Positions 36-23,646 are shown, counted from the stretch's first letter. The stretch is DNA of 25,983 nt from an uncultured Candidatus Saccharibacteria bacterium (GCA_964501545.1 CAZCSH010000003.1:1-25983); one strand, 5' to 3'. Numbers and translations: made by a program. The notes: generated by a model not told the origin, from the sequence alone.

Positions 36-1304
36 ATGTTTCAAAAAACCACTCTCAAAAATGGTCTTCGCATTATTACTGTTCCCCAAAAGGGCACTCA
101 GGCAGTGACTGTTTTGGTTTTAGTGGGAACGGGGTCAAAAAATGAGACCGAAGCAATAAATGGCATCTCTCACTTTTTGGAGCACATGATGTTCAAAGGG
201 ACTAAGAAGCGGCCTTCCCCAATTGAGATAGCTGAAACCTTGGATAAGGTTGGAGGTTTGTACAATGCTTTTACCAGTCAGGACTACACGGGCTACTTTG
301 CCAAAGTAGAAGCTTCTCAGTTTGAATTAGCCTTTGACTGGGTTTCTGACATTTTCTTGAACAGTCTTTTGCCAGAGAAAGAGATTAAAAAAGAGAAAGG
401 GGTAATTGTTGAGGAGATTAACATGATTTATGACCACCCGATGAGCTATATTGGGGAGGTCTTGTGGCCAAAGCTCCTTTACGGGGACCAGCCAGCCGGC
501 TGGGATGTAGCTGGCACGAAAGAAAGCGTTAGCGCCATTAGTAAAAAGACTTTGTTAGATTATAGAAGAAAGCAATATGTGCCAGGAAACACTATTTTAT
601 CTGTGGCAGGTAATGTTGACCAAAAGAAAGTAATAAGGCTGGCTAGAAAATATTTCGCTAAGGTTAAAAAAGGCGTTGCCCAGGCCAAACCCAAAGTAAT
701 TGAGAGCCAAGAGAGACCAGAAGTTATTTTGGAAGAAAGGAAAACAGACCAATCCCATATCTGTTTTGGGGTTAGGGCTTACAACATCTTTCATCCTCAA
801 AGATATGTTCAAGATGTTTTGGCAGTCATTCTTGGAGGGATGATGAGCTCTCGTTTATTTGTTGAAATAAGAGAAAAAATGGGTTTAGCCTACTATATTA
901 ATACTGAAGTTGATAGTAATCCAGAAACAGGATTCCTTCTGACGCGGGCTGGGGTAGATAATATGAGAGTGGGAAAAGCAATTTCTGCTATTTTGAAACA
1001 ATATAAGATAATTTCTCAAAGAAAAGTTTCTGGTTTAGAATTAAAGAAAGCTAAAGACAATCTCAAAGGGAAGCTGGCTTTATTGTTTGAGCCGTCTGAT
1101 GCCAGAGCTTCTTTTTACGCCAGCCAAGAATTGCTTGAAAAAAGAATCAAGACCCTAAAGGAGGTTTTGGCAGAAATTGATAAAGTTTCTCCAGATGATA
1201 TTCTAAAAGTAGGAAAAGATATTTTTAAGCCAGAAAAGCTGAACTTGGCTTTAATTGGGCCGTTCAAAGAGAAAACAAGGTTTGAAAAGATATTAAGGGT
1301 TTAG
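36..1304 (+). CDS. M16 (pitrilysin/insulinase) family zinc peptidase
   Basis: 422 aa. Inverted zincin motif HFLEHMMFKGT, NAFTS motif, downstream Glu (IVEEINM), and C-terminal M16_C features SSRLFVEIREKMGLAYY. Confidence 0.92.
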   Translation: MFQKTTLKNGLRIITVPQKGTQAVTVLVLVGTGSKNETEAINGISHFLEHMMFKGTKKRPSPIEIAETLDKVGGLYNAFTSQDYTGYFAKVEASQFELAFDWVSDIFLNSLLPEKEIKKEKGVIVEEINMIYDHPMSYIGEVLWPKLLYGDQPAGWDVAGTKESVSAISKKTLLDYRRKQYVPGNTILSVAGNVDQKKVIRLARKYFAKVKKGVAQAKPKVIESQERPEVILEERKTDQSHICFGVRAYNIFHPQRYVQDVLAVILGGMMSSRLFVEIREKMGLAYYINTEVDSNPETGFLLTRAGVDNMRVGKAISAILKQYKIISQRKVSGLELKKAKDNLKGKLALLFEPSDARASFYASQELLEKRIKTLKEVLAEIDKVSPDDILKVGKDIFKPEKLNLALIGPFKEKTRFEKILRV

Positions 1305-1336
1305 GCGATGAATCTTTAGATTCATCTTTATCTTCG
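1304..1336 (-). repeat. Hairpin repeat family A, partial copy (minus strand)
   Basis: Minus strand reads CGAAGATAAAGATGAATCTAAAGATTCATCGCC, with stem GATGAATC/GATTCATC. Matches the copies at 6231, 7093, 21505 and 23605 but lacks the CYGAGY head. Confidence 0.7.
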
Positions 1337-1376
1337 TTTTCACATATATTAATTAATATCAAAGAATGAAAACTCG

Positions 1377-2405
1377 ATGAATGGAGACAGAGTTTTAGAC
1401 ATTTCTTGGAGCACAATATTGAAGGTTTCTTTTGCTTTGCTTTGTTTCTACATTATTTATCTGGTCAGAGATATTTTAGTTTGGTTTATTTTTGCTTTAA
1501 TCATTTCCATCTTGTTTAATCCTGGAGTAACTTTCTTGCAGAGGCTAAGGGTTCCGAGGGTATTGGCCGTTATTTTCATTTATGTTGCTATTTTTGGTCT
1601 TCTGGGAATCTTGATTTATGCTACCGCCCCCATGTTTGTTAATGAGATTAGGCAGTTTTCTCAACTTTTCCCTCAGTATTTTGGAAAGATAGCTCCTCCT
1701 TTGCGGGGCCTGGGAGTAGAAGCTTTTGAAAGCATGGAAAGCTTTACTCAGGCTTTGGGAGAGACGCTCCAGAGAGCTTCTTCTGACATTTTTAATGCTT
1801 TGGCTATCTTTTTTGGCGGAATAGGTTCAACCATCTTTGTTTTAGCTATTGCCCTTTTCCTTTCTTTGGAAGAAAAGGGAGTAGAAAGAGTTATTGCTCT
1901 TCTTTCTCCTAAAAGATATGAATCCTATATTCTTTCCCTCTGGATCAGGTCTCAGACCAGAGTAGCAGGCTGGTTTGGCAGTAGGATTTTAACTTGTTTT
2001 CTTGTTGGTTTGGCAGTCTTCATCACCTTGAGGCTCTTTAACGTAAACTACGCTTTTTCTTTGGCTCTTTTAGCCGGTGTCTTTGATTTTGTTCCTGTTT
2101 TGGGCCCGATAATTGTCGGAGCCATAGCTTTTGTTTTTGTGGCTTTGGACTCTTGGTTAAAAGCCTTCTTTGTTCTAATAGCCTTTATTCTCATCCAACA
2201 GATAGAGGGAAACATTCTTTCTCCTATTTTAACTAAGAGATTTGTTGGTATTCCTCCAGTCTTGGTTTTAATATCTCTGGCTCTAGGAGCCAAACTCCTT
2301 GGCATTTTAGGAGCTGTTTTGGCGATACCTCTGGCTGGCATCTTGTTTGAGTTCTTGCGAGACTTTTTACAAAAGAGAAAGCAAGAGAAAGCGGTGGTTT
2401 TATAA
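1377..2405 (+). CDS. AI-2E (PerM/UPF0118) family membrane transporter
   Basis: 342 aa, multi-TM. Family motifs FDFVPVLGP, QQIEGNILSP and GAVLAIPL. Confidence 0.88.
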   Translation: MNGDRVLDISWSTILKVSFALLCFYIIYLVRDILVWFIFALIISILFNPGVTFLQRLRVPRVLAVIFIYVAIFGLLGILIYATAPMFVNEIRQFSQLFPQYFGKIAPPLRGLGVEAFESMESFTQALGETLQRASSDIFNALAIFFGGIGSTIFVLAIALFLSLEEKGVERVIALLSPKRYESYILSLWIRSQTRVAGWFGSRILTCFLVGLAVFITLRLFNVNYAFSLALLAGVFDFVPVLGPIIVGAIAFVFVALDSWLKAFFVLIAFILIQQIEGNILSPILTKRFVGIPPVLVLISLALGAKLLGILGAVLAIPLAGILFEFLRDFLQKRKQEKAVVL

Positions 2406-3079
2406 TGAGTCTTTTTATTGTATCTACCCCAATTGGTAATCTCCACGACCTCAGCCTCCGAGCATCAGACACCTTAAAGGAGGTTGATTTAATTTTGGCA
2501 GAGGATACCAGAGTGACCCAGAGATTATTAGACCGCTATAAAATAAAAACGCCTCTTCTTTCTTACCACCAACACAGCAGGTTAAAGAAAATAGATTATA
2601 TTTTAGGATTGTTGAGAGAAGGGAAAGATTTAGCTTTGGTTTCTGATGCCGGCACTCCTGGCATTTCTGACCCAGGAGGCTTCTTAATTGAGAAGGTGGT
2701 TGAGACCTTTGGTTCTCAAATCAAGATAGTGCCTATACCGGGGCCTTCAGCCTTGATAACAGCTGCCAGTATTTCAGGCTTCCCAATGGACGAATTTCTC
2801 TTTTTAGGTTTCCCGCCCGTTAAGAAAAAAAGAAAGAGGTTCCTTGAAGAAGTAGTTAATTCAAAGCGCCCTGTTATTTTTTATGAGTCTCCCTATAGAA
2901 TAATTAAAACCCTAACTGAATTGAGCGAAACTAAGCCCGGCTTAGTTTTAGTGGTCTGCCGGGAATTAACTAAGATGTTTGAGACGGTTTATCGGGGAAA
3001 GATTGAGGAAGTAATAGAAAAGATCAAAAAAGATAAAATTAAAGGAGAATTTGTAGTAGTAGTTGGGAGCCAAAAGTAA
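2405..3079 (+). CDS. rsmI: 16S rRNA (cytidine1402-2'-O)-methyltransferase
   Basis: Motifs VSTPIGNLHDLSLRA, AEDTR, LVSDAGTPGISDPG, FYESPYR and RELTKMFE. TAATG overlap with the previous gene. Confidence 0.96.
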   Translation: MSLFIVSTPIGNLHDLSLRASDTLKEVDLILAEDTRVTQRLLDRYKIKTPLLSYHQHSRLKKIDYILGLLREGKDLALVSDAGTPGISDPGGFLIEKVVETFGSQIKIVPIPGPSALITAASISGFPMDEFLFLGFPPVKKKRKRFLEEVVNSKRPVIFYESPYRIIKTLTELSETKPGLVLVVCRELTKMFETVYRGKIEEVIEKIKKDKIKGEFVVVVGSQK

Positions 3080-3101
3080 GCTTTAATTTAGCTAAAAGAT
3101 G

Positions 3102-3129
3102 TGTTAAAATAAAGGAGTTTAACTCCTTT
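3102..3129 (+). promoter_or_regulatory. Extended -10 (TGtTAAAAT) upstream of metG, followed by palindrome AAAGGAGTT-T-AACTCCTTT
   Basis: TG-N-TAAAAT at 3102-3110. 9-bp perfect inverted repeat at 3111-3119/3121-3129, which could be an operator or a terminator. Confidence 0.45.
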
Positions 3130-3135
3130 TTATTT

Positions 3136-4578
3136 ATGCCAAAGAAAAAGTTTTACATCACAAGCAGTATAGCTTATACTAATGCCTTTCCCCACATAGG
3201 TTTTGCTTTGGAAGTGATTCAGGCAGATGTTTTAGCGCGCTATCACCGAATTTTGGGTGAGAAAGTGTTTTTTTTAACAGGGACAGATGAGAATGGTTTG
3301 AAAAATGCTCAAGCTGCAAAAAAAGTAGGTAAAACTCCCCAAGAGTTTGTTGATGATATAGCCGCAAAATTTAAAGATTTAACAAAAACACTTGATTTGT
3401 CAAATGACGATTTTATTAGAACCACTGATCAAAAACGGCATTGGCCAACCGTTCAGAAAGTTTGGCTTAAGTTAAAAGATAATGGCGATGTTTACAAAAA
3501 GAAGTACAAGGGTTTTTATTGTGTGGGATGCGAGGCCTTTATTAAAGAAAAAGACTTAGTTGATGGAAAATGCCCCAACCACCAAAAGAAGCCAGAACTG
3601 ATAGAAGAAGAGAATTATTTTTTCCGACTTTCAAAATACCAAAAAGAGATTGAAGAAATAATTAAAAAAGAAAAGATAAAGATATTTCCTGAAGCTAGAA
3701 AAAATGAGATTTTAAGCTTTATTACAAAAAGAATAGAAGATATCAGCTGTTCTCGGTCAAAAGAGAATTTACAATGGGGCGTGCCAGTGCCTGACGATGA
3801 CAGTCAAATTATTTACATCTGGCTGGAGGCTTTAATTAACTATATTTCAGCTCTAAATTATGCGGAGAATGGGACTAACTTCCAGAAGTTTTGGCCAGCC
3901 GATGTTCATTGTGTGGGCAAAGATATATTTCGCTTTCATATTTTACTTTGGCCAGCCCTCCTTCTATCATTAAAACTGCCCTTGCCAAAAACCATTTTAG
4001 TTCACGGATTTATCACCTTTGGGGACCAGAAGATGTCAAAAAGCTTGGGTAATGTGGTAGACCCCTTTGAGCTGGTTGAAAAATACGGAGTTGATGCTGT
4101 TCGTTATTTTCTTTTAAGAGAACTACCTTCTACAGAGGATGGGGACTTTACCTATGAGAAGTTTGAGGATAGATATAATGCAGATTTGGCTAAAGGCCTT
4201 GGCAATCTTGTTGCTCGAGTAATAACGCTTGCCTCCAGAGCTTCGGTTAAACCGAGTTTAACCGAAGCTAAACTCGGTTTAGTTATTAAAAAAACAAAGA
4301 AAAAATACAAGGAAGCTTTAAATGATTTCAAGTTTAGTGAAGCCTTGGTCCCAATTTGGGAGCTGATTAGTTTTTGTGATAAATACATTGAGAGAGAAAA
4401 ACCCTGGTCCTTCGGCTCAGCTCAGGATAAAGAGAAACAAAAAGGGGTAATTGGCAATTTATTATTTGCCTTAGTAGAAATAGCTGGGCTCTTAAAACCC
4501 TTTTTGCCAGAAACTTCAGAAAAAATATTAAAACAAATAAAAAGTATAAAAAGTAAACCTTTATTCCCAAGAGTTTAA
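3136..4578 (+). CDS. metG: Methionine--tRNA ligase (short form, no C-terminal tRNA-binding domain)
   Basis: HIGH variant PHIGF, LTGTDENG, Zn knuckle CVGCE...CPNH, GKDI, KMSKSLGN and VRYFLLRE. Confidence 0.96.
   Translation: MPKKKFYITSSIAYTNAFPHIGFALEVIQADVLARYHRILGEKVFFLTGTDENGLKNAQAAKKVGKTPQEFVDDIAAKFKDLTKTLDLSNDDFIRTTDQKRHWPTVQKVWLKLKDNGDVYKKKYKGFYCVGCEAFIKEKDLVDGKCPNHQKKPELIEEENYFFRLSKYQKEIEEIIKKEKIKIFPEARKNEILSFITKRIEDISCSRSKENLQWGVPVPDDDSQIIYIWLEALINYISALNYAENGTNFQKFWPADVHCVGKDIFRFHILLWPALLLSLKLPLPKTILVHGFITFGDQKMSKSLGNVVDPFELVEKYGVDAVRYFLLRELPSTEDGDFTYEKFEDRYNADLAKGLGNLVARVITLASRASVKPSLTEAKLGLVIKKTKKKYKEALNDFKFSEALVPIWELISFCDKYIEREKPWSFGSAQDKEKQKGVIGNLLFALVEIAGLLKPFLPETSEKILKQIKSIKSKPLFPRV
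4239..4281. repeat. Interlocked double palindrome (family C) in frame in metG
   Basis: AGCTTCGGTTA (4239-4249) pairs with TAACCGAAGCT (4259-4269). TAAACCGAGTTTA (4248-4260) pairs with TAAACTCGGTTTA (4269-4281). The same 13-mer occurs at 13706-13718. Confidence 0.8.
4409..4431 (-). repeat. REP-like repeat family B in frame in metG (SFGSAQD)
   Basis: Minus strand reads TTTATCCTGAGCTGAGCCGAAGG. It shares the CTGAGC..CGAA core with the copy at 4877 and with family A. Confidence 0.6.
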
Positions 4579-5438
4579 TGTTAATAGACAGCCACGCTCA
4601 TTTGAATTTTGCAGCTTACAAGAAAGATGTTGATGAGGTAATTCAACGTTGTTTGGATAATGATGTCTGGATGATAAATGTTGGCACTAATTATCAAACC
4701 AGCAAAAAAGCGGTGGAGATTACTCAAGAATTTCCCCAAGGAGTTTTTGCCGCTGTCGGCCTTCACCCGATTCATTTAGAAACCGGATTGGTGAAAATAA
4801 AAAATGATACCGAAGAAATTGAGATTAAAACAAGAGAAGAAGAATTTGATTATGAAAAATATAAAGAATTGGCCAGTTCGACAGGCTCAGGGCAAGCTGA
4901 ATCAAAAGTAGTGGCAATTGGCGAAATTGGTTTGGATTATTATTGGCGACCCAAAACCTCTAAAAAGAAAGAGCTCTTTAAGCAAAAACAGAAAGATCTG
5001 CTTTTAAAACAATTAAATTTAGCCAAAGAGTTAAACTTACCAGTAATTTTTCACTGTCGAATGGCTCATCAAGATTTGATTAGAATTCTTTTAGAAAATT
5101 CAGAAATTTTACCCAAAAAAGCAGTGGCTCATGGTTTTGTAGGGAACCTAGAAGAACTCCAAAAATATCTAGACTTCGGGTTTTTTATTGGGTTTAACGG
5201 AATAATTTTCAAATCCATTGAGGGAATTGATTTTGAAAAAAATATTAAAGAAACTCCTTTAGATAAAATTTTAATTGAAACTGACTCCCCTTATTTAACC
5301 CCACCTCCAAAATCAGGGAGAAACGAACCTCTTTATGTTAAATACGTGGCAGAGAGACTTGCCAAAATAAAGAAAATTAGCTATGAAGAGGTATCTAAAA
5401 TAACCACAGAAAATGCCAAAAAACTATTCAAAATCTAA
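4578..5438 (+). CDS. tatD: TatD family deoxyribonuclease
   Basis: Motifs LIDSHAHL, GLHP, AIGEIGLDYY, IFHCR and ETDSPYL. Confidence 0.95.
   Translation: MLIDSHAHLNFAAYKKDVDEVIQRCLDNDVWMINVGTNYQTSKKAVEITQEFPQGVFAAVGLHPIHLETGLVKIKNDTEEIEIKTREEEFDYEKYKELASSTGSGQAESKVVAIGEIGLDYYWRPKTSKKKELFKQKQKDLLLKQLNLAKELNLPVIFHCRMAHQDLIRILLENSEILPKKAVAHGFVGNLEELQKYLDFGFFIGFNGIIFKSIEGIDFEKNIKETPLDKILIETDSPYLTPPPKSGRNEPLYVKYVAERLAKIKKISYEEVSKITTENAKKLFKI
4877..4897 (-). repeat. REP-like repeat family B in frame in tatD (STGSGQA)
   Basis: Minus strand reads GCTTGCCCTGAGCCTGTCGAA. It adds about 7 residues just before the conserved VVAIGE motif. Confidence 0.6.
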
Positions 5439-6213: not shown

Positions 6214-8731
6214 TTACAATTCTCAAACACCCGAGCGAGGCGAAGCCGAGCGAAGGGTGAAGATGAAGGCAAACTTCGGAGAAGGCAAACTTCATCGCCA
6301 AATAGAGCCCAAATGGCAGAAATACTGGGAAGAGAATAGTTTTTTTCAGGCTGAAGATTTCTCAAAGAAGAAAAAGCTCTACATTTTAATTGAATTTCCC
6401 TATCCTTCGGGAGATGGTCTTCACGTTGGTCACGTGAGATCTTATTCTGCCTTGGATGCAGTGGCCAGAAAAAAAAGGATGGAGGGATTTAATGTTTTAT
6501 ATCCTATTGGCTGGGATGCTTTCGGCCTCCCAACAGAAAACTATGCCATTCGAACCGGTATTCACCCTCAGCTAGCCACTGAGAAAAACATAGAGACTTT
6601 TAAAAGGCAATTAAAGAGCTTGGGTCTTTCTTTTGATTGGTCAAGGGAGGTTAATACAACCAATCCTAGATACTACAAATGGACCCAATGGATATTCTTG
6701 AAGCTCTTTGAAAAAGGTCTGGCCTATCAAGCTGAAATCCCCGTTAACTGGTGCCCTTCTTGCAAAATAGGTTTGGCGAACGAAGAAGTACTAGGAGGTG
6801 CTTGTGAAAGATGTGGGACGCCAGTTGAGAAAAAGGTTTTAAAACAATGGATGTTAAAGATTACAAAGTATGCTGACAGACTTCTGGAAGACTTGGGAAA
6901 AGTTAATTATTTAGACAAGATTAAAGCTCAGCAAGTTAACTGGATAGGCAAGAGCTGTGGAACAGAAGTGGATTTTCAGGTTGAAGGCTCAAAAGAGAAA
7001 ATATCTGTCTTTACCACTAGAATTGATACTCTTTTTGGGACAACTGCTGTGGTTTTAGCTCCGGAGCATCCTTTAGCCGAAACATTAATTACCCGAGCCA
7101 CAGCGAAGGGTGAAGAAGAAGATTTATCTTCTTCGACTACTAAAGATAACAAAGAAAAAGTAGAAAAATACATTAGAGAAGCCAAAAGAAAAAGTGATTT
7201 TGAGAGGGAGAAATTAGAGAAAGAAAAAACAGGAGTTTTCACGGGCTCCTATTGTCTAAATCCTGGAAATCAAGAAAAGGTTCCTATCTGGATTGGAGAT
7301 TATGTGCTGGCTTCTTACGGAGGAGGGGCAGTAATGGTGGTTCCTGCTCACGATCATAGAGACTATGACTTTGCCAAAAAGTATGGTTTGGAAATCAGAA
7401 AGGTTGTAGCTGGAGGAGACATTAAAAAAGATCCCTTTGTTGATTATGGAAAGCTAGTTAATTCCGGAGAGTTTAATGGCTTATCTTCCAAAGAAGCGAT
7501 TGAAAAGATCACCAAGTGGCTGGAGAAGAAGAAACTGGGGAAAGAGATGGTTCAGTATAAATTGAGAGACTGGGTTTTTTCCCGCCAGCACTATTGGGGA
7601 GAGCCCATTCCTATTATCCACTGTTCAAAGTGTGGTCTGGTGCCAGTGCCAGAAAAAGACTTACCAGTTAAACTTCCCTACGTAGAGAAATACCAGCCCA
7701 CAGGTACAGGAGAATCACCTCTGGCCGCTGTTTCTGATTGGGTCAATGTTAAATGCCCAAAATGTAAGGGTGGGGCAAAGAGAGAAACAGATACTATGCC
7801 AAACTGGGCAGGGTCTAACTGGTATTTTATGAGATACTGCGATCCTGGAAATAATAAAGAGCTGGCAGATAAAAAGAAGTTAAAATATTGGCTGCCGGTT
7901 GATTGGTACAATGGCGGCATGGAACACACCACCTTGCACTTATTGTACTCCAGGTTTATTTACAAGTTCCTTTATGACATTAAAGTAGCTCCTGCCCCAG
8001 AGCCCTACCAAAAAAGAACTTCCCACGGTATGGTTTTGGCAGAGGACGGCAGGAAAATGTCAAAGTCCTTTGGCAACGTCATAAATCCAGATGATATTGT
8101 GGCTGAATATGGAGCTGATACCTTGAGGATTTATGAGATGTTTATGGGTCCCTTTGGCCAGGCTATTTCTTGGAGTGCTCAGGGAGTCAAGGGCGTGTAT
8201 CGCTTTTTGGAAAAAGTTTGGCACTTGGTCAAGACGGCTGAAGGGAAAACGAGTTCTAATGTTGCAAGAGCTTTGCACAAGTTAAATAAAAAAGTGGCGG
8301 AAGACATAGAGACTACAAAATTCAATACGGCTGTCGCAGCTTTCATGGAGTTTGTTAATTTAGCTTTGGAAGATACCAGCCAGGTAGGCAAGGACACGAT
8401 TGAAAGGTTTCTTTTATTGTTAGCTCCTTTTGCTCCCCATTTAACAGAGGAGCTTTGGCAGGGATTGGGCCACCAAGAAAGCATCTTTCTGGAAAAGTGG
8501 CCAAAGCATGACCCCAAACTGACAAAAGCAGAGATGATTACTTTGGTTATTCAAGTCAATGGCAAGGTTCGAGACAAAATTGAGGTGGCAGTTGGTATTT
8601 CAGAAGAAAAAGCAAAAAAGCTTGCAATTTCTCAAAAAAAGATACAAAATTGGATAGCTGGCAAAGAAGTTAAAAAGGTAATCTTTGTGCCAGAGAAGTT
8701 AATCAATATTGTTATGTCTAATGAAATTTAA
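6200..8731 (+). CDS. leuS: Leucine--tRNA ligase with two in-frame repeat insertions
   Basis: Motifs FPYPSGDGLHVGH, GWDAFGLP, CP1 editing domain (GGGAVMVVPAHD), RDWVFSRQHYWG and KMSKSFGN. Start 6200 is preferred because YN..IEPKWQ is split by the 6231-6299 insert. Confidence 0.97.
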   Translation: MPNSNYNSQTPERGEAERRVKMKANFGEGKLHRQIEPKWQKYWEENSFFQAEDFSKKKKLYILIEFPYPSGDGLHVGHVRSYSALDAVARKKRMEGFNVLYPIGWDAFGLPTENYAIRTGIHPQLATEKNIETFKRQLKSLGLSFDWSREVNTTNPRYYKWTQWIFLKLFEKGLAYQAEIPVNWCPSCKIGLANEEVLGGACERCGTPVEKKVLKQWMLKITKYADRLLEDLGKVNYLDKIKAQQVNWIGKSCGTEVDFQVEGSKEKISVFTTRIDTLFGTTAVVLAPEHPLAETLITRATAKGEEEDLSSSTTKDNKEKVEKYIREAKRKSDFEREKLEKEKTGVFTGSYCLNPGNQEKVPIWIGDYVLASYGGGAVMVVPAHDHRDYDFAKKYGLEIRKVVAGGDIKKDPFVDYGKLVNSGEFNGLSSKEAIEKITKWLEKKKLGKEMVQYKLRDWVFSRQHYWGEPIPIIHCSKCGLVPVPEKDLPVKLPYVEKYQPTGTGESPLAAVSDWVNVKCPKCKGGAKRETDTMPNWAGSNWYFMRYCDPGNNKELADKKKLKYWLPVDWYNGGMEHTTLHLLYSRFIYKFLYDIKVAPAPEPYQKRTSHGMVLAEDGRKMSKSFGNVINPDDIVAEYGADTLRIYEMFMGPFGQAISWSAQGVKGVYRFLEKVWHLVKTAEGKTSSNVARALHKLNKKVAEDIETTKFNTAVAAFMEFVNLALEDTSQVGKDTIERFLLLLAPFAPHLTEELWQGLGHQESIFLEKWPKHDPKLTKAEMITLVIQVNGKVRDKIEVAVGISEEKAKKLAISQKKIQNWIAGKEVKKVIFVPEKLINIVMSNEI
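6231..6299 (+). repeat. Hairpin repeat family A, in frame (69 nt) in the leuS N-terminus
   Basis: CCGAGC...GCGAAGGGTGAAGATGAAG-loop-CTTCATCGCC. Encodes PERGEAERRVKMKANFGEGKLHR. Confidence 0.8.
7093..7137 (+). repeat. Hairpin repeat family A, in frame in the leuS editing domain
   Basis: CCGAGCCACAGCGAAGGGTGAAGAAGAAGATTTATCTTCTTCGAC, flanked by TAC (7090-7092 and 7138-7140). The net 48 nt encodes RATAKGEEEDLSSSTT. Confidence 0.82.
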
Positions 8732-9620
8732 AGAGATATTTATAAAAAGATATTTCCGAATGGCGGACAGAATGGGTCAATTGATAAAATCCAAAGCGGT
8801 TAAAGAAAATTTATCAAGTTCTCGGATAGCGTCTTTAACCGGAGTCAGCGAGAGTTATGCTGAACATTTTGTTAGGAACGACCGTAATTTTAGAGAAGAT
8901 CAGCTCCAAAAGATATTGCCATTGTTTGGCGTCATCTTTCCTTCTGGAAGTTTCTTTCCTGTTAATACGACTCAGGGAAATTTTATAAGCTTGCCCAATA
9001 TAAGTTCGCCAGAACTGATGCAGATTATTGGTTATTTTTTAGGCGATGGAAATTTGCAGAAAAGATCAATAAGGTTTAAGGACTCAGACAAAGAAGTGCT
9101 TAATGTTTATCAACGACTGATTAGAAAAACCTTTAATATTGAAGGAAGGGTTGTCCCGCAGAAAGGGACCATAGCTTATCTCCTCGAAGTGAACAGCCTT
9201 TATTTAAGAAAATGGTTCCAAGAAAATATAGTTTCCAGAAAAAAAGAGTTTTTAGAAGAAGTAAATCAACTCCCTCAGAAAAAGTTGACTGCCTTTCTCC
9301 GGGGCCTTTTTGATGCCGAAGGATTTGTCGCAATTCAATCAAGGCAAATAAGGCTTGGGATAACCAATAGAGAAATAGGGGAAATCCTTCCAGCTCTCAT
9401 TTCTAAACTCGGGATACCATTAACTTCTCACCTGATAAAACGAAGGGAGCCCAACTGGAAAGACGTTTATCTTATTTCCTTGAATAATTACGCATCCTTT
9501 GATAAGTTTTCTAAATATATAGGATTTTCTTCAAAAGAAAAAAATAAAAGGCTTGAGTTTCTTATCGAGAGGAAGCCTAAAATAAAGTTAATGAATAAAT
9601 TTAATTTATGTGTGGGATAA
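8721..9620 (+). CDS. Free-standing HTH + double-LAGLIDADG (DOD/intein-type) endonuclease-like protein
   Basis: Motifs ELMQIIGYFLGDG and FLRGLFDAEG, with an N-terminal HTH-like segment (SSSRIASLTGVSESYAEHF). No Hint motifs. Start is uncertain (8721/8760/8772). Overlaps the leuS end and the glmS start. Confidence 0.85.
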   Translation: MKFKEIFIKRYFRMADRMGQLIKSKAVKENLSSSRIASLTGVSESYAEHFVRNDRNFREDQLQKILPLFGVIFPSGSFFPVNTTQGNFISLPNISSPELMQIIGYFLGDGNLQKRSIRFKDSDKEVLNVYQRLIRKTFNIEGRVVPQKGTIAYLLEVNSLYLRKWFQENIVSRKKEFLEEVNQLPQKKLTAFLRGLFDAEGFVAIQSRQIRLGITNREIGEILPALISKLGIPLTSHLIKRREPNWKDVYLISLNNYASFDKFSKYIGFSSKEKNKRLEFLIERKPKIKLMNKFNLCVG

Positions 9621-11434: not shown

Positions 11435-11452
11435 AAATACAAAAATTATGCG

Positions 11453-11475: not shown

Positions 11476-11482
11476 ATTAGGG

Positions 11483-12991: not shown

Positions 12992-13007
12992 GTAAAATAA
13001 ATAAGAG

Positions 13008-14642: not shown

Positions 14643-14658
14643 TGGCTAAGAAATTAGA

Positions 14659-16585: not shown

Positions 16586-16628
16586 AGATTTTACTGAAAT
16601 ACCCCGCTATTTAAAATTTCTAACGGGG
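16562..16628 (-). mobile_element. MITE-like element 2 (67 bp), 16-bp TIRs, CTTG target duplication
   Basis: Ends CCCCGTTAGAAATTTT ... AAAATTTCTAACGGGG. CTTG at 16558-16561 and 16629-16632. Excision restores M-Q-G-K-F-L-I-K-G-G from minus-strand ATG 16635. Confidence 0.9.
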
Positions 16629-16629
16629 C

Positions 16630-16658
16630 TTGCATCCTTCACTTTTTTACTCTACAAT
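16630..16658 (+). promoter_or_regulatory. Sigma70-type promoter for the yvcK-glmU-like operon
   Basis: TTGCAT (16630-16635), 17-nt spacer, TACAAT (16653-16658), 12 nt before ATG 16671. Confidence 0.65.
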
Positions 16659-16670
16659 AAAACAGTCTTT

Positions 16671-17651: not shown

Positions 17652-18883
17652 TTTTAGCCGCGGGAGAAAGCTCAAGATTTTGGCCCTTAAACCAAAGACA
17701 CAAATCCCAAATTAAGGTATTGGGAAAATCTTTGGTTAGCTGGACTATTCAAAGCTTAGAAGAGGCAGGGATCAAAGATGTTGTTCTGGTAGTTGGACCA
17801 AATTCTTCTTTGAAGGAAGAGTTTCCTTCGATTAGCCACCTTACCCAGGAAAAAGCCTTGGGAACAGGGAATGCTCTCTCTTTGGCCAAAGACCTGATCA
17901 AAGAACCCTTTCTCGTTGTTTGGCCTTACAAGATTAATGCTAAAGAAATTATCGATAAGGTTTTAGAGAAATATAAAGGAGAAAAACCCAAAGCAGTTTT
18001 GGTGGGTAGAAAAACTTCTCATCCCCATGATTACGGAATCCTCAAGACAGAAGGCGAGAGAGTGGTTGAAATTGTTGAAAATCCTCAAGCCGGAGCAGAG
18101 CCTTCGGACATTAAGGTTGTTGGAGCTTACTTTTTAGAGCCTGATTTTTTTGATTATTATCAAAAGATTGAAGAACACCATCCAGAAGATTTTATTGATG
18201 CTCTTAATAATTATATTAAAGAAAAAGCAACTAAACTGGTTGTTTTAGAAAAAGAACCTTCTTCTTTAAAGTATCCCTGGGAAGTCTTGGGGATATTACC
18301 TATGATGTTTGATTCAGACAATTTTAAACCCTCTATCTCCCAAACAGCTAAGATTGGGGAAAATGTGGTGATGGAGGGGGATGTTTATATTGGCGAGAAG
18401 GTTGTCATTGGGGCCAATACCGTGATTTTAGGCCCTTGTTATATTGGAGATAATTGTAAGATTGGGGCTAATAATGTTTTGAGGGGGCCGGTTAATTTGG
18501 AAAAAGATGTTGTCACCGGTGCTTTAATGGAGATTAAGAATTCTCTGGTCCAAGAGGGCACTCACTTTCATTCTGGCTACCTTGGTGACTCGGTTATTGG
18601 AAAGAATTGTCGTTTTGGGGCAGGCTTTATTGTGGCCAACAGAAGAATTGACAGGGGAAACATTAAATCAGTTGTCAAAGGAGAAAAAGTAGATACCGGG
18701 CTTACTTATTTGGGAGTAATTGTCGGAGATAATACTCGTTTTGGCATTCATTCGGGCACCATGCCAGGAGTTTTGATTGGCTCTGATTGTTTGATTGGTC
18801 CTGGCAGCTTAGTTTTTGAAAATCTTGAAGACAACACTGCTTTTTATACTAAGTTTGAAGGCGTGAGAAAAGAAAATAAATAA
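17639..18883 (+). CDS. Sugar-1-phosphate nucleotidyltransferase with hexapeptide (LbH) domain, archaeal-type GlmU-like
   Basis: N-terminal LILAAGESSRFWPL, QEKALGTG and YPWE, then hexapeptide repeats, HSGYLGDSVIG and GVIVGD. Confidence 0.82.
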   Translation: MQALILAAGESSRFWPLNQRHKSQIKVLGKSLVSWTIQSLEEAGIKDVVLVVGPNSSLKEEFPSISHLTQEKALGTGNALSLAKDLIKEPFLVVWPYKINAKEIIDKVLEKYKGEKPKAVLVGRKTSHPHDYGILKTEGERVVEIVENPQAGAEPSDIKVVGAYFLEPDFFDYYQKIEEHHPEDFIDALNNYIKEKATKLVVLEKEPSSLKYPWEVLGILPMMFDSDNFKPSISQTAKIGENVVMEGDVYIGEKVVIGANTVILGPCYIGDNCKIGANNVLRGPVNLEKDVVTGALMEIKNSLVQEGTHFHSGYLGDSVIGKNCRFGAGFIVANRRIDRGNIKSVVKGEKVDTGLTYLGVIVGDNTRFGIHSGTMPGVLIGSDCLIGPGSLVFENLEDNTAFYTKFEGVRKENK

Positions 18884-18912
18884 TCTTGTGGAAAAGTACT
18901 AATAAAGAGGGA

Positions 18913-18940
18913 TTGACAAGAATCCCTCTTTTGCTAATCT
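18913..18940 (+). promoter_or_regulatory. Sigma70-type promoter embedded in a terminator-like hairpin
   Basis: TTGACA (18913-18918), 16-nt spacer, TG-C-TAATCT (18932-18940). The -35 overlaps the loop of the inverted repeat AAGAGGGATT (18905-18914) / AATCCCTCTT (18921-18930). Confidence 0.55.
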
Positions 18941-18945
18941 GTGAT

Positions 18946-19316
18946 AAAGAGGTTAGGGCAGCCAGCCTTATTCCTCTCTTGCTGAAGGGGGCAACCTTGG
19001 TCTTTGGGGAAGGGTTCCCCTTTCGTATGTTGAGGTGCAGGGTTGCCCCTTTCTAGATCTTTCATTTCCTCGAAGGAGGAAGCAATTGCTTCATCAACTC
19101 AAACTGCCTTTAGTAGGGCCACGAGCTCGTTGATGAGTTCGTGGCCTAAAGCAAGCACGGCCCGGCAGAGCCCATCTGCCAGATCCAATTGGGGCCATAA
19201 GGTCCCAAAGAGGGTAAATCCCTCAAAAAGAAGAAAAGGGGTGAGCGCCCCGCCTCGTGCGGGGCGCCCCCACAAACTTCTCTCGGCTCCGTCCATAGCG
19301 TCGGAGCTCTTTTTTT
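18946..19316 (+). ncRNA. Putative structured non-coding RNA of unrecognised class
   Basis: GC-rich intergenic block with at least 7 stems, bracketed by a promoter and an intrinsic terminator. No convincing ORF. Confidence 0.45.
19286..19316 (+). terminator. Intrinsic terminator
   Basis: Stem GCTCCG (19286-19291) / CGGAGC (19302-19307), followed by TCTTTTTTT. Confidence 0.65.
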
Positions 19317-19331
19317 ATTCTTTTTGCTAAA

Positions 19332-19340
19332 TGGTATACT
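19332..19340 (+). promoter_or_regulatory. Extended -10 for the tsaC-MFS genes
   Basis: TG-G-TATACT, 8 nt before ATG 19349, implying a leaderless or very short leader. Confidence 0.5.
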
Positions 19341-19348
19341 TTAACAAT

Positions 19349-19933
19349 ATGGAAATATTGAAAGCAAAAAGAGTTTCCGGGAAAGTTGTGAGGCAGATTG
19401 TCAAAGAAATCAAAGAGGGCAAGGTCTTAATCTTCCCCACTGACACAGTTTATGGCTTGATTGCTGCAGCTACCAACAAGAAAGCAGTTGATAGGATTTT
19501 TCAGATAAAAAAAAGAAATAAGAGAAAACCAATACCTATATTTGTTAGAGATTTAAAGCAGGCAAAGGAATTGGCTGAGATAAACAAAGTCCAGGAAGTG
19601 CTTTTAAAGATAGCTTGGCCTGGCAAGATGACATTTGTTTTCTGGCGGAAGAGAAGGGAAAAGCTCTACGGGGTAGATAAAAAGAGTATTGCTCTGCGAA
19701 TCCCAGATTATCCTTTAGTCAGCAAGGTTTTAAAGAAAATAAGTCTTCCTTTGACCGGCACCTCAGCCAATATTTCAACTAAAGCTCCGACAACAAAGAT
19801 TAAAGAAGTCCTGAAAGAGTTTAAAGGTCAAAAATATCAGCCTGATTCAGTTGTTGATGCTGGCAATTTAAAACCAGCCGGACCCTCCACTGTTATTGAT
19901 CTAAGACAGGGTTTTAAGATTTTAAGAAAGTAA
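19349..19933 (+). CDS. tsaC: L-threonylcarbamoyladenylate synthase (YrdC/Sua5 N-domain)
   Basis: Motifs FPTDTVYG, IKKRNKRKPI, WPGKMT, ALRIPD, TSANIS and PSTVID. The track start 19331 falls inside the -10 box, so 19349 is preferred. Confidence 0.92.
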   Translation: MEILKAKRVSGKVVRQIVKEIKEGKVLIFPTDTVYGLIAAATNKKAVDRIFQIKKRNKRKPIPIFVRDLKQAKELAEINKVQEVLLKIAWPGKMTFVFWRKRREKLYGVDKKSIALRIPDYPLVSKVLKKISLPLTGTSANISTKAPTTKIKEVLKEFKGQKYQPDSVVDAGNLKPAGPSTVIDLRQGFKILRK

Positions 19934-19934
19934 T

Positions 19935-21128
19935 ATGCCACTTATCAGCTTTCCCCCAACTAACTTTTTAAGATACTTTTTAAAGAGAGAGGCCAATCAA
20001 TTCTTTACCAGTGTTGCCATTCGTTCTCTGGCTCTGGGCATGGTGGTCATTTTTGAGCCAATCTACCTCTATAACTTCTTTGGCCATTCTCTTTCTCTCA
20101 CTCTTTTATTTTTTGGAGCAATTCAGGGTCTTTATGGTTTGTTAGCTGTCTGGGGAGCGAAATTCATGGCTAGAGTTGGTTTGAAGCACTCCATTCTCTT
20201 TAGCCATGTTTTCTTCTGGGCCTACTATATGTCTTTGTTTCTTATTGGGAAATTCTTTTTGTTCGTACCTTTAGCCATTGTTTTGAAAGCTGTTGGTATG
20301 ACTTTGTTTTGGCCTGCCTTTCACACAGATTTCATTCGCTTTTCAGAGAATGACTACCAAGGGAGAGCGGTAGGCAAAATGAACGTTGTTTTTTCCATCC
20401 CTACTATTCTTAGTCCGGCCATTGGGGGCGCTATCTTGGGATTGGCGGGTTACCAGGCTTTGTTTATTAGCGTCTTGATTGTTCTCTTTGCCTCTTCTAT
20501 CCCAATGTTTCTTTCTCGGGAAACCCATGTTGTTTACAGTGATTCTTACAAGAAAGCTTGGTCTCGGCTTTTTAAGAAAGAAAATTGGAGGGCAACCTTA
20601 GCTTTTGCCTCTTCCTCAATGGAAGCTGGAGTGAGAGAGATTTTGTGGCCAATCTTTATGTTTGTTCTGGCTATTAGTTTTACAGTCATGGGAGGGATTA
20701 CCACTTTAGCTTTGGGAGTAGGGTCCCTGTTTGTTTTGTACATGGGCAGGATTTCAGACAGTATTTCCAATCGGGTTTGGTTTCTGAACATCGGCTCTGT
20801 TTTAACTTCCATGGCCTGGATTATAAAATACTTTGTTCTTACTCCGTTTGATGCTTTTTTAGCCAAGACCCTTTATGGGATTTGCCGCTCAACAGCTGAC
20901 ATCCCTTTTCAGACTTTCTTTTACAAAAAAGCCTCCCTTAAAAGAGGAGAGGCAGATGAGTTCATAGTCTACCGGGCAATTGTTCTTAATCTTTCTTACT
21001 TCTTTTTTTTCTCGCTTCTAGCTCTGCTTTTTCTCTTTACCGCCAAAATCAATATTGCCTTTCTGATTGCCGCTGTTGTTTCTTTGGGAATTATTTTTTT
21101 AGGAGTGCCACCAAAGTTAAAATGGTAG
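19935..21128 (+). CDS. MFS family transporter
   Basis: 397 aa with about 12 hydrophobic segments. Motif-A-like GRISDSIS, RAVGKMN and SPAIGG. Confidence 0.8.
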   Translation: MPLISFPPTNFLRYFLKREANQFFTSVAIRSLALGMVVIFEPIYLYNFFGHSLSLTLLFFGAIQGLYGLLAVWGAKFMARVGLKHSILFSHVFFWAYYMSLFLIGKFFLFVPLAIVLKAVGMTLFWPAFHTDFIRFSENDYQGRAVGKMNVVFSIPTILSPAIGGAILGLAGYQALFISVLIVLFASSIPMFLSRETHVVYSDSYKKAWSRLFKKENWRATLAFASSSMEAGVREILWPIFMFVLAISFTVMGGITTLALGVGSLFVLYMGRISDSISNRVWFLNIGSVLTSMAWIIKYFVLTPFDAFLAKTLYGICRSTADIPFQTFFYKKASLKRGEADEFIVYRAIVLNLSYFFFFSLLALLFLFTAKINIAFLIAAVVSLGIIFLGVPPKLKW

Positions 21129-21129
21129 C

Positions 21130-21375
21130 CTATTCTTTTTCTTCCGATGCTTTCTTTAACTGGAGAGAAATAATTACTACCAAAGCAGTGACAATGACAG
21201 CGTAAGAGAATTTACCAATCACCCCTTCTGACTCAGGGAAGAGAAGTCTAAAGAGCGTCTGAATGGCATCGTTCCAAGCCAAAGCAGCTACCAAGCCAAA
21301 GCCTGCCAGCATAAGAGTTAACATCTTTTCCTTTAGCTCTTTTTTTGTTTTGTTTATTTCGTTTAAAGGGTTCAT
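21130..21375 (-). CDS. Small two-TM membrane protein, DUF5654-like (81 aa)
   Basis: AGFGLVAALAWNDAIQ motif and two hydrophobic helices. The track's longer start runs through the tRNA and is rejected. Confidence 0.75.
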   Translation of the reverse strand: MNPLNEINKTKKELKEKMLTLMLAGFGLVAALAWNDAIQTLFRLLFPESEGVIGKFSYAVIVTALVVIISLQLKKASEEKE

Positions 21376-21377
21376 AG

Positions 21378-21461
21378 TGGGCGAGGTGGGACTCGAACCC
21401 ACATGGAGCAAGCTCCACAGGTTTTTGAGACCTGTCTGTAAACCAATTCCAGCACTCGCCC
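21378..21461 (-). tRNA. tRNA-Leu(CAA), 84 nt, CCA not encoded
   Basis: Acceptor stem GGGCGAG/CTCGCCC plus A73, anticodon stem CAGGT/ACCTG with loop CT-CAA-AA, long variable arm TGGAGC-TT-GCTCCA, and T-arm GTGGG-TTCGAGT-CCCAC. Confidence 0.96.
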
Positions 21462-21472
21462 AACACCCCTTC

Positions 21473-21481
21473 ATTCTATCA
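21473..21481 (-). promoter_or_regulatory. Extended -10 for tRNA-Leu
   Basis: Minus strand TG-A-TAGAAT, ending 11 nt upstream of the tRNA 5' end. Confidence 0.5.
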
Positions 21482-21504
21482 ATTTTTTATTATTTCTTCA
21501 ATGA

Positions 21505-21558
21505 CCGAGCCCGCCTAAGGCGGGCGAAGGTGAAGAAGAGGACAAAATCCTCTTCGCC
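21505..21558 (+). repeat. Hairpin repeat family A, intergenic, abutting the topA stop
   Basis: CCGAGC, internal hairpin CCCGCC-TAA-GGCGGG, then GCGAAGGTGAAGAAGAGGA-CAAAA-TCCTCTTCGCC. Confidence 0.8.
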
Positions 21559-21560
21559 TT

Positions 21561-23582
21561 TTATCGAGCCGCATTCGGATAGTCGCACTCTTTATTAGAA
21601 CATTTAATTTGTCCTCTTTTAGTCTGAACTAACAAAAAGCCACAGTCTGGGCATTTCTCTTTGGTGGGTTTGTCCCATAAGGCAAAATCACACTTTGGGA
21701 ATCTATTGCAGCCGTAAAATATTTTTCCTTTTTTGGTCCTTTTCTCAACAATTTCACCCTTTTTGCATTTTGGGCATTTAATTCCCAGAACATTCTTTTC
21801 TAGAGGTTCTGTGTAGCGGCATTTTGGAAAAGCAGAACAGGCGTAAAACTGGCCAAACTTGCCCATTCTTACAACTAGAGGAGCTTTACATTTGGGGCAG
21901 GTTTTCTTTGTTGGTTTTTCGGTAATCTCTTTTTTGGAAACCTCTTCATACTTTCTTTTCAGGTTTTTCTCAAAAGGAGCATAGAACTCTCTTATTACCG
22001 GCACCCATTCCTTTTCTCTTTCTGCTATTTCATCTAACTCTTCCTCCATTTTGGCGGTAAACTTAATATCAACAATCTTGGGAAAGTGATTAACCAAAAG
22101 ATCGTTAACCAGCGTTCCTATTTCAGTAGGTTTAAATCTTCTTTGCTCGTCTTTCTCAATATAGTTTCTTTCTTGGATGGTAGAGAGAATGAGAGCGTAA
22201 GTAGAAGGTCTTCCTATTCCGTTCTCTTCCAAAGCCTTGATTAAGGTGGCCTCTGTATATCTTGGAGCAGGCTGGGTAAAGTGTTGAGCCGGCAGGAGTT
22301 TTATTAATTCCAAGACATCGTTCTTTTTCAAAAAGGGAAGTTCTTCTTCCTTGTACTTTATTGGGTAAACCTTTAAAAACCCGTCAAACTTTAGGGTTTG
22401 GCCAGTGGCTCGAAAAGTGTAGTTTTTAGCTACAATATCGACTGCGGTTGAGTTAAAAACAGCTTGGGCCATTTGACAAGCGATAAACCTTTGCCAAATG
22501 AGTTGATAAAGCTTTTTTTGTTGGGTTTCCAGCTTGACCTTTTCTGGAGTTCTGTCCGGATAAGTAGGCCTGATGGCTTCGTGGGCTTCTTGAGCTCTGC
22601 CTTTAGTTCTATATCTACGGAACTGATAATAGTTTTGGCCAAAGTTTTCAGTAATAAACTTTTTGGCTGTTCCCAGAGCTAAGTTTGAAAGGTTCAAAGA
22701 GTCAGTTCTATGATAGGTCGTTAGCCCTTTCTCATAAAGCTGTTGGGCTATCTGCATTGTTTTTCTAGCAGGGAAACGGAATTTTCTCCAGGCTTCTTGC
22801 TGAAGGTAGCTTGTGGTAAAAGGAGGCAGGGGATTTCTTTTAACTTCTTTTTTCTCCACTCCTTCCACTCTGTAGTCTGTCCCTTTTAAGTCTTTTGTAA
22901 TCTTCTCTGTCTCCCCTTTGTTTTTAATAGCGAGCTTCTCTAGAGCTTTGTTGTCTTTTTTAACTAAAAGAGCTTTGAACTCCTTATCTTTTTTCAAGAG
23001 AGCCTCTATTGTCCAGTATTCTTGAGGGGTGAAAGCCTCAATTTCTCTCTCACGTTCGACAACCAAGCGAACAGCCACAGACTGGACCCTGCCGGCTGAC
23101 AATCCCCTGGCTATTTTCTTCCATAAAAAGGGAGAAAGTTTGTAGCCGACAATTCTATCTAAGATTCTTCTTGCCTGCTGGGCGTCTACTAAAGCCATAT
23201 CAATCTTTCTTGGGTTCTTTAAAGCTTCTTCTATGGCTTGTTTTGTAATTTCGTGAAATGCAATTCTTTGGTATTCTTTTTTGCCATTGAGATTTAAAGC
23301 TTGAGTTAAATGCCAGGCAATGGATTCTCCCTCTCTATCCTCGTCCACAGCTAAAATAATTATATCTGCTTCTTCCGCAGCTTTCTTTAATAAGGTGATT
23401 GTTTTTCTTGATTTTGGAGGGATAACGTACTTTGGCTCAAAATCATTCTCAATATCAACTCCAAGTTCGCTTTTTGGCAAATCTCTCACGTGGCCGTAGG
23501 AAGCAAGGACCCTGTAACCGGAGCCCAAAAAGTTTTTAATAGTATTCCCTTTGGCAGGGCTTTCCACTATGACTAAGCGCAT
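21561..23582 (-). CDS. topA: Type IA DNA topoisomerase I
   Basis: TOPRIM motifs IVESPAK, GHVRDLP and DEDREGE, plus SAGRVQS, catalytic TYHRTDS, EAHEAIRPT, GIGRPST and C-terminal Zn ribbons. Confidence 0.97.
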   Translation of the reverse strand: MRLVIVESPAKGNTIKNFLGSGYRVLASYGHVRDLPKSELGVDIENDFEPKYVIPPKSRKTITLLKKAAEEADIIILAVDEDREGESIAWHLTQALNLNGKKEYQRIAFHEITKQAIEEALKNPRKIDMALVDAQQARRILDRIVGYKLSPFLWKKIARGLSAGRVQSVAVRLVVEREREIEAFTPQEYWTIEALLKKDKEFKALLVKKDNKALEKLAIKNKGETEKITKDLKGTDYRVEGVEKKEVKRNPLPPFTTSYLQQEAWRKFRFPARKTMQIAQQLYEKGLTTYHRTDSLNLSNLALGTAKKFITENFGQNYYQFRRYRTKGRAQEAHEAIRPTYPDRTPEKVKLETQQKKLYQLIWQRFIACQMAQAVFNSTAVDIVAKNYTFRATGQTLKFDGFLKVYPIKYKEEELPFLKKNDVLELIKLLPAQHFTQPAPRYTEATLIKALEENGIGRPSTYALILSTIQERNYIEKDEQRRFKPTEIGTLVNDLLVNHFPKIVDIKFTAKMEEELDEIAEREKEWVPVIREFYAPFEKNLKRKYEEVSKKEITEKPTKKTCPKCKAPLVVRMGKFGQFYACSAFPKCRYTEPLEKNVLGIKCPKCKKGEIVEKRTKKGKIFYGCNRFPKCDFALWDKPTKEKCPDCGFLLVQTKRGQIKCSNKECDYPNAAR

Positions 23583-23604
23583 ATTGTTTTAACTTTATCA
23601 TTTA

Positions 23605-23646
23605 CTGAGTGTCAGCGAAAGTGAAGAAGAGAGTCTTCTCTTCGAC
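23605..23646 (+). repeat. Hairpin repeat family A, intergenic between topA and mfd
   Basis: CTGAGTGTCAGCGAAAGTGAAGAAGAGA-GTCT-TCTCTTCGAC. Confidence 0.75.

Follow-up and report, generated by a model that had tools for sequence, protein, structure and literature searches.

Rickettsia palindromic elements (RPEs) are short palindromic repeats without genes that occur in a reduced genome, often lie in frame in unrelated housekeeping genes and are moved by an unknown enzyme (PMC10969869). Insertion sequences of the IS200/IS605 type are mobilized by TnpA, a Y1 HUH transposase, in a 'peel and paste' process: their ends are hairpins, their target is fixed and is not duplicated, one strand is active, non-canonical pairing takes part, and excision is precise (PMC3201880, PMC5027513, PMC5934647). 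Here we describe a hairpin repeat family with five copies, two of them inside the gene leuS, in a DNA stretch of 25,983 nucleotides (CAZCSH010000003.1:1-25983; 'the window'), which is contig C3 of a bacterial genome of 482,740 bp (41 contigs, 92% complete). We consider it probable that these repeats form an RPE-like insertion family that carries no genes, is defined by its structure, is targeted to TTCAW, is filtered by the reading frame and is handled as a single DNA strand.

The LeuS protein of this genome is nearest to assemblies named 'Candidatus Paceibacterota' (72%), which places the host in the Paceibacteria, a group of the candidate phyla radiation (CPR)/Patescibacteria. A metagenome scan with LeuS found no close relative, the best match being at most 69%. 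In all comparisons below, the genomes are metagenome-assembled and possibly incomplete, the copy counts given for relatives are lower bounds, covariance-model E-values are rough, and gene calls are based on open reading frames (ORFs).

The repeat family in the window and in related genomes

The original prediction, made from the letters of the window alone, had claimed five copies with the consensus CYGAG..GCGAAGG(G)TGAA..stem..GMC and the stem variants GATGAA/TTCATC, GAAGAA/TTCTTC and GAAGAG/CTCTTC. Consensus and variants were correct, and all five copies were recovered by a covariance model (R1) built from 28 genome-wide seeds after a motif search:

1303-1380, - strand: copy 1, intergenic, with an expanded AT-rich first hairpin; covariance-model match of 53 bits
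6227-6300, + strand: copy 2, covariance-model match in leuS
6227-6298, + strand: leuS insert of copy 2, in frame, 72 nt, 24 codons, near the N-terminus, TPERGEAERRVKMKANFGEGKLHR
7089-7138, + strand: copy 3, covariance-model match in leuS
7091-7138, + strand: leuS insert of copy 3, in frame, 48 nt, 16 codons, in the editing (CP1) domain, TRATAKGEEEDLSSST
21502-21559, + strand: copy 4, intergenic and full-length, 66.1 bits; 5' flank TTCAA
23602-23647, + strand: copy 5, intergenic, with a minimal first hairpin, 44.4 bits; 5' flank ATCAT

Copy 1 had been drawn too short, to position 1336; its long AT-rich first hairpin extends to 1380. Copy 2 belongs to a subtype with a short first and a long second hairpin and has the 5' flank TCTCAA, and copy 3 is of the short subtype with the closing helix ACCC:GGGT.

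Further copies, expected if the family is real, were numerous in this genome and in its relatives. The model matched 126 sites of this genome at E≤1 and 92 at E≤1e-4 in the 464 kb searched, which corresponds to about one copy per 5 kb and makes up roughly 1.1% of the sequence. Of 98 copies that were classified, 22 are intragenic. The element was found in 25 of 41 relatives (22 of 24 within the same family), with 0 to at least 140 copies per relative, and copy number varied within genera (0, 71 and 10 copies in one; 3 and 36 in another). Relative G012 had 147 copies in the 381 kb searched, and about 300 are given for this 100% complete genome. Among 200 other genomes sampled evenly from the class, one had a match, a single copy. 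The element is specific to one Paceibacteria family, with a few copies in neighbouring families.

The single copy outside this group (G204:C16:31684-31741, 60.5 bits) lies in another family of the class and could represent lateral transfer or contamination.

Fold of the element

The element is typically 56-58 nt long (about 45-78 nt overall), contains no genes and has, on what we call its forward strand, the layout NN-ACC-GA-[stem 1]-GAA-GGT-G(A/G)A-[stem 2]-G(C/A)C. In place of the single hairpin proposed originally, RNAalifold predicted three helices from the seeds: P1, a 3-bp closing helix (ACC:GGT); P2, the first hairpin, which is free in sequence and length and is closed by G:C; and P3, the second hairpin, of 8 bp. 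A short subfamily with minimal P2 has a fourth P1 pair (ACCC:GGGT), and the P1 variant ACGC:GCGT is a compensatory double change from it. In a 92-copy alignment, which was fitted to the covariance model and so to a model that favours pairing, 96.6% of the cells were paired, compared with 74.2% in shuffled controls and at most 52% with slid partners, and 333 cells had changes on both sides of a pair. The unpaired motif positions are 80-100% conserved, whereas the stems vary freely.

Covariation also occurred in columns that the model treats as unpaired, and there it was therefore not imposed by the model. The G of the 'GA' after P1 and the middle A of the 'GAA' before GGT occurred as (G,A) 65 times, as (A,C) and (A,A) 8 times each and never as (G,C) (p=4e-7). 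For the second base of the 'GAA' linker and the middle base of the 'GCC' tail the counts were (A,C) 48, (G,A) 33, (A,A) 10 and (G,C) 0, a pattern that G012 reproduced (81/23/35/0, p=8e-11), and the flanking G:C covaried in Watson-Crick fashion (GC 57, CG 8, AT 7, TA 2). We infer that the feet of the hairpins are tandem purine-purine pairs of the sheared type.

These purine-purine pair sets occur on the forward strand only. G.U exceeded A.C 40:19 in this genome and 63:24 in G012 (103:43 combined), and the forward strand folds more stably in 75 of 94 copies. It is this strand that is constrained; the pairing data do not imply that it is also the one transposed.

The GA motifs were considered as a K-turn or a sarcin-ricin motif and rejected by reasoning, as their strand layout fits neither consensus. 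Across the genome, many hairpin loops consist of GAA with a closing C:G pair (GCGAAGC type) or of its complement TTC, others of TTTA or TAAA; both loop orientations are present, as if hairpin tips could flip.

Some copies of this genome form head-to-tail tandem arrays or mixed-orientation clusters of three to five units each, similar to bacterial interspersed mosaic elements (BIMEs); the array units at C10 and C21 are of the ACGC:GCGT variant. A related but distinct repeat, ...GAGGCGAGAGATGAGATTTATCTCATCGAAC-TAATAAA, has the second hairpin and the tail in common with the family, differs in its 5' half and scores weakly with the model.

C18:12062-12304, C10:1101-1237, C21:7215-7371, C13:12531-12668, C39:2533-2646 and C5:13593-14033: arrays and clusters
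C5:13593-13651, C5:13982-14033, C2:8-39 and C2:4661-4708: GAGGCGAGAGATGAGATTTATCTCATCGAAC-TAATAAA repeat

Three copies share the 3' extension ACCGARYTTTAATTTAT (C1:19398-19415, C2:4710-4727 and C26:3044-3062), and a minimal 'ACCGA..TCGC' stub comes after some others, as it does after C6:8136. The extensions and stubs may be composite units or footprints.

Insertions inside LeuS and other proteins

Two of the copies had been read as in-frame insertions of 23 and 16 codons in leuS. The shorter insert has the predicted length (7091-7138), while the longer one comprises 24 codons (6227-6298). In an alignment with LeuS orthologues, the sites were empty; the same peptides encoded by other codons were not found. 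The 16-codon insert was present in none of 30 orthologues, with the empty site L-I/T-K, and the 24-codon insert was absent from 29 of the 30. The only other occupied N-terminal site was that of G010, which belongs to a different genus and has a LeuS that is about 53% identical; its copy differs at one of 40 bases of the conserved part. Seven contigs from independent metagenome assemblies encode LeuS with both inserts identically, and therefore the inserts are not an assembly artefact.

We mapped the inserts on an AlphaFold model of LeuS (pLDDT 85.9, pTM 0.80; predicted local distance difference test and predicted template modelling score, respectively), as the original prediction had proposed. 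Residues 1-28, the region of the 24-codon insert, had pLDDT values below 50. The 16-codon insert lies between the predicted helices 291-306 and 313-328, and residues 308-313 likewise were below 50. In this model, both inserts are predicted to occupy low-confidence segments outside the core.

Insertion into genes is not confined to leuS. In the nearest relative, G015, approximately 458 kb were compared and only two copies were found; its orthologues lacked at least 12 further in-gene copies. The proteins affected are EF-G, UvrA, TsaD, PNPase, ArgRS, CysRS, AlaRS, IF-2, two Mur-type enzymes, an isoaspartyl methyltransferase and one protein of unassigned identity; the comparison was ambiguous for the NusA copy. 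In-gene copies occur in both orientations and are read in few recurring frames, such as GEEDKSSSSPS... in antisense and T-R/E-..AKGE.. in sense, and the encoded peptides are hydrophilic and rich in E, D, K, S and G. Of 21 in-gene matches, 16 were in one length class modulo three, whereas intergenic copies were spread evenly over the three residues, and the number of open frames per copy was 3.7 inside genes versus 2.2 between them. We conclude from both biases that the inserts are translated and that only frame-compatible insertions survive. At the outset, the copies had been proposed to belong to a mobile family of hairpins, parallel to RPEs and REPs (repetitive extragenic palindromic sequences), through which proteins gain peptide loops, and the further copies and the empty LeuS sites support this.

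A compact conserved fold within essential genes could also be expected of an intervening sequence that is excised or bypassed at the RNA level and leaves the proteins unchanged. However, the in-gene copies that were checked were all multiples of three, free of stops and read in few frames, none of which splicing needs, and both orientations occur inside genes. No Rfam intron or ribozyme matched even at E≤1; tRNA alone matched in the window at the gathering score, and nothing did at E≤1 over 21480-23680, which includes two copies. We regard this explanation as extremely improbable.

Target site and junctions

The 5' flank of the element is conserved nearly as strongly as the element itself: of 91 copies, 77 have T at position -4, 63 have C at -3 and 58 have A at -2, followed by T or A at -1. 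The same 5' pattern recurs in G012. The 3' flank shows no more than a weak excess of A at its first base. Insertion occurs directly 3' of TTCAW on the element's own strand and without target duplication. Junctions could be defined exactly against G015 for RNase H (...AAGAAC/58 nt/ATGAAG versus ...AAAAACT/ATGAAG), L4 (...CAATT/61 nt/ATG versus ...AAAATT/ATG) and AlaRS, in each case without duplication. The TAC repeats that had been reported to flank the copy at 7093 are no more than a 2-nt AC ambiguity. At other sites, where the empty state is known precisely, the target is not duplicated.

A classical miniature inverted-repeat transposable element (MITE), that is, a deletion derivative of a DDE transposase element with terminal inverted repeats and target duplications, would likewise be small, present in many copies and located both between and within genes. 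But the termini of our element, NNACCGAG and TCGCCN, are not inverted repeats, the exact junctions show no duplication, and the 3' flank has no conserved motif, which makes a MITE very improbable.

Insertion at gene starts

The trinucleotide CAT lies directly 5' of 29 copies, and in about 21 of these a real gene of the opposite strand starts with it. Comparison with G015 places the element precisely at the boundary between the native ATG and the sequence that natively precedes it. L36, L14, L24, L4, TrpRS, CysRS and ProRS all begin with the flanking ATG, at the codon that opens them in G015 too. Between S17 and L14 and at the start of AsnRS, an ancestral ATGA stop/start overlap, which G015 retains, was split by the element, and the gene upstream has acquired a new stop; for AsnRS and L4 the new stop is within the element. 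ATGAA, with which genes most commonly start, is complementary to TTCAT. Co-directional intergenic copies are antisense in 41 cases and sense in nine (42:23 in G012). Target choice and survival therefore explain both the position of the copies and their orientation bias. The CAT that flanks copy 5 is out of frame with the start of topA, and there TCAT is thus the target motif and not a start codon.

In other genera, copies sit at identical gene starts: L14 in G004 and G010, L29 in G012, G013 and G014, and L24 in G023. Same-site copies were 0.54-0.74 alike across genera, compared with 0.78-0.82 for unrelated copies. Orthology of these copies thus draws no support from their similarity, and that they resemble each other no more than unrelated copies do favours repeated insertion over shared ancestry.

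The position of these copies could also indicate that the host has recruited the element as a cis-acting RNA or DNA site at gene starts and keeps it at each locus by selection, for example for start selection, operon insulation, mRNA stability or the binding of nucleoid or replication proteins. About 21 copies lie directly upstream of native starts, including those of ribosomal-protein and tRNA-synthetase genes, and identical starts are occupied in several genera. Moreover, Shine-Dalgarno (SD) usage is not evident in this genome (GGAGG upstream of seven of 351 long ORFs), the upstream regions are AU-rich, with TAAAA, AATAA and TATAA enriched, and conserved unpaired motifs next to stems that are free in sequence yet 96.6% paired, at about 59% identity among copies, resemble a functional structured nucleic acid. 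On the other hand, 41 of the 50 co-directional intergenic copies are oriented such that the constrained strand is complementary to the mRNA, and it is the non-mRNA strand that bears the purine motifs and shows the excess of G.U. The position at starts follows from the TTCAW target, which is used at non-start sites too, sister genera have the same genes without the element, and copies occur within coding regions in both orientations. A short upstream ORF that ends on an ATGA overlap, and could confer translational coupling, is present in only five of 20 start-adjacent copies, and this role was rejected. Overall, we consider recruitment by the host unlikely, although it deserves some weight.

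Two other roles at gene starts were rejected. The element does not supply the start codon, since the ATGs open the proteins at the G015 residue (e.g. L36 MKVRPSVKK, L14 MIQPRT and CysRS MLKVYNTL). The SD-like box GAAGGTGA was rejected as a ribosome-binding site, given that SD usage is not evident in this genome and the majority of copies lie antisense to the adjacent gene. Many adjacent genes of this genome overlap as ATGA.

Search for a mobilizing enzyme and weighing of the evidence

The original prediction had linked the family to TnpA or to a REP-associated tyrosine transposase (RAYT). A single PF01797 (Y1_Tnp) gene is present in this genome (C2:10936-11640). It encodes 234 amino acids with HYH and YIHANP motifs, and the protein scored 38.5 bits with the RAYT model NF047646, for which the cut-off is 80. 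In this genome, no full-length parent with tnpA and matching ends was found, and in G012, the other genome covered, there was no tnpA. A weak PF01797 match in G012 was rejected as a MacB-type ABC permease.

The Y1 gene is bracketed by an AATAATGGCAGTCCGACTGCCATTATT hairpin and short direct repeats (C2:10872-11700; locus L115 2370-3200), and hairpins like AATAATGGCAGTCCGACTGCCATTATT occur at about two other places only (C1:35566 and C5:15131). Gene and hairpin look like a separate low-copy unit of the IS200/REP type.

Several results weigh against an RPE-like family that is mobilized as a single strand. The hairpin flanking the Y1 gene is not that of the family, and neither this gene nor its homologues have a family copy beside them. 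The Y1 gene does not track copy number, occurring in 12 of 19 genomes with at least ten copies and in 10 of 22 with fewer, in a test that is weakened by the incompleteness of the metagenome-assembled genomes. G012, complete and with about 300 copies, has no Y1 homologue. Together, the foreign flanking hairpin, the lack of tracking and the absence from G012 reduce the HUH link to an analogy of mechanism. When target bases and columns of the element were searched for covariation of the kind expected of an IS608-type guide, only subfamily effects and no clear guide emerged, and the 5' junction of in-gene copies varies by 0-3 nt, which is a loose end. The copies are also divergent: median identity within this genome is 59%, and with just two pairs of at least 90% identity recent bursts are not evident. 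Among same-species contigs (3-7 samples), the copies of the window showed no presence/absence polymorphism. Finally, near-perfect pairing at such divergence is not what would be expected if a selfish element simply decayed. Pairing in the stems may be kept by selection for mobility with high turnover, by selection in situ, or by arm-to-arm templated correction. Templated correction between the arms of palindromes is a recognized mutational process.

The low identity, the lack of polymorphism and a G012 without transposase would all be consistent with old, immobile relics that were lost differentially from a family ancestor and whose pairing is maintained by arm-to-arm templated correction only. 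We consider this improbable. It requires many base-precise losses, with G015 retaining the ATGA overlap at S17-L14 and at the AsnRS start, and it has to accommodate 0, 71 and 10 copies within one genus. Furthermore, same-site copies across genera are not closest relatives, and the N-terminal LeuS copies of two distant genera differ at one of 40 bases while their host genes are about 53% identical.

For an RPE-like insertion family, the tests above establish the repeat family and its fold, the empty sites, the target motif, the lack of duplication and the frame filter; how the element moves is a proposal. The forward strand folds into two adjacent hairpins whose sequence-free stems stand on conserved purine-rich feet, and the element would move as, or into, single-stranded DNA through a hairpin-recognizing enzyme, either of the HUH/Y1 type or unidentified, as do IS200/IS605 derivatives and REPs. 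An insertion at TTCAT that falls on a gene start places the copy just upstream of an intact gene on the opposite strand and survives there. Inside a gene, an insertion survives only if it is a multiple of three, free of stops and in a tolerant loop, and it is then translated. The original prediction had left open whether the mobile form is single-stranded DNA or RNA. Insertion at TTCAW without duplication, purine motifs on one strand and the G.U excess lend support to a single-stranded form, and an RNA intermediate received no support.

Alternatively, the element could be a structure-coded single-stranded DNA replicator that uses no Y1/HUH transposase at all, its hairpins being read by a housekeeping enzyme or an undescribed one acting on single-stranded DNA. 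Such an enzyme would insert the element 3' of TTCAW and perhaps excise it precisely, and the fold would be kept at each locus by selection or arm-to-arm templating. This would explain how a complete genome can hold about 300 intact copies without a Y1 gene, and also the near-perfect pairing among copies of about 59% identity. We put it forward tentatively, as a minority view.

Neighbouring genes in the window

The 5' end of copy 1 overlaps the ATG (1377) of a + strand gene for an AI-2E-type transporter, an identity taken from the Pfam listing of a same-species contig. Copy 4 lies between the stop of topA (21561, - strand) and a tRNA gene (21378-21461, - strand), and copy 5 between the start of topA (23582) and the stop of mfd (23704), both on the - strand. 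Two further ORFs were recorded:

8709-9620, + strand: free-standing LAGLIDADG_3 ORF of 286-303 amino acids between leuS and glmS, overlapping at both ends and found on every same-species contig (Pfam listing)
21130-21474, - strand: DUF5654 ORF of 114 amino acids, overlapping the tRNA gene at 21378-21461 (- strand)

On one same-species contig the DUF5654 gene was called at 81 amino acids, and its true start is therefore probably downstream of the tRNA.

Consequences for the host

Few known genomes are as small and streamlined as those of CPR/Patescibacteria, yet a selfish-looking hairpin repeat makes up 1-2% of the genomes studied here. In this genome, about 20 proteins are altered, many of them translational (EF-G, IF-2, LeuS, ArgRS, CysRS, AlaRS, NusA and PNPase among those affected). 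At about 21 genes, several of which encode ribosomal proteins and formerly overlapped stop to start, the element separates the ATG from its native upstream sequence. The family thus provides natural data sets on sites in essential proteins that tolerate 16-24 extra residues, on translation starts of the non-SD type with a stable structure directly upstream of the ATG, and on a mechanism of insertion that is defined by structure and leaves no duplication.

Comparison with known systems

In the searchable literature, we found no description of such elements in Patescibacteria. Integron attC sites are recognized through a folded single strand with conserved unpaired bases and not through the sequence of the stem, and in this they would resemble our element. 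The element differs from attC in that it has no cassette array or integrase context and is dispersed beside and inside core genes.

The element resembles REPs and their RAYTs in several respects: its palindrome is short and imperfect, a conserved motif adjoins the stem, copies number from dozens to hundreds and include tandem or clustered arrays, and this genome has one RAYT-like Y1 gene. In contrast, the RAYT-like gene is flanked here by the AATAATGGCAGTCCGACTGCCATTATT hairpin and not by family copies, about one-fifth of the copies are intragenic (22 of 98), and the stems are hypervariable within one genome. The element therefore lacks what defines a REP/RAYT system, namely flanking of the gene, co-occurrence with it and extragenic location. 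It also lacks the inverted repeats and target duplications of a classical MITE.

The resemblance to IS200/IS605 elements extends further. The element has two end-to-end hairpins without terminal inverted repeats, inserts 3' of a fixed sequence of 4-5 nt without duplication, carries its informative features on one strand and depends on non-canonical base interactions, and its clean empty sites fit precise excision. Unlike in IS200/IS605, the stems are not conserved in sequence, the ends lie 1-2 nt from the feet of the hairpins, target and element do not covary as with a guide, no full-length parent was found, and the highest-copy genome among those compared has no Y1 gene. Of four characters by which a derivative of these insertion sequences can be recognized, the element shows two: hairpin ends, and a fixed target without duplication.

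Like RPEs, the element is a dispersed palindromic repeat without genes in a reduced genome; it is found in frame in unrelated genes and is read through as peptide in tolerant parts of proteins. It is shorter (about 56 nt, range 45-78 nt, versus approximately 100-150 bp) and consists of two short hairpins, whose stems are free in sequence and whose feet are conserved purines. It targets TTCAW without duplication, is strongly linked to ATGAA starts and occurs in another phylum (CPR/Paceibacteria). The comparison is one of analogy only. In behaviour, the closest known analogue is the Rickettsia palindromic element (PMC10969869), and in its presumed mechanism the family would stand nearest to gene-less derivatives of IS200/IS605 and to REPs.

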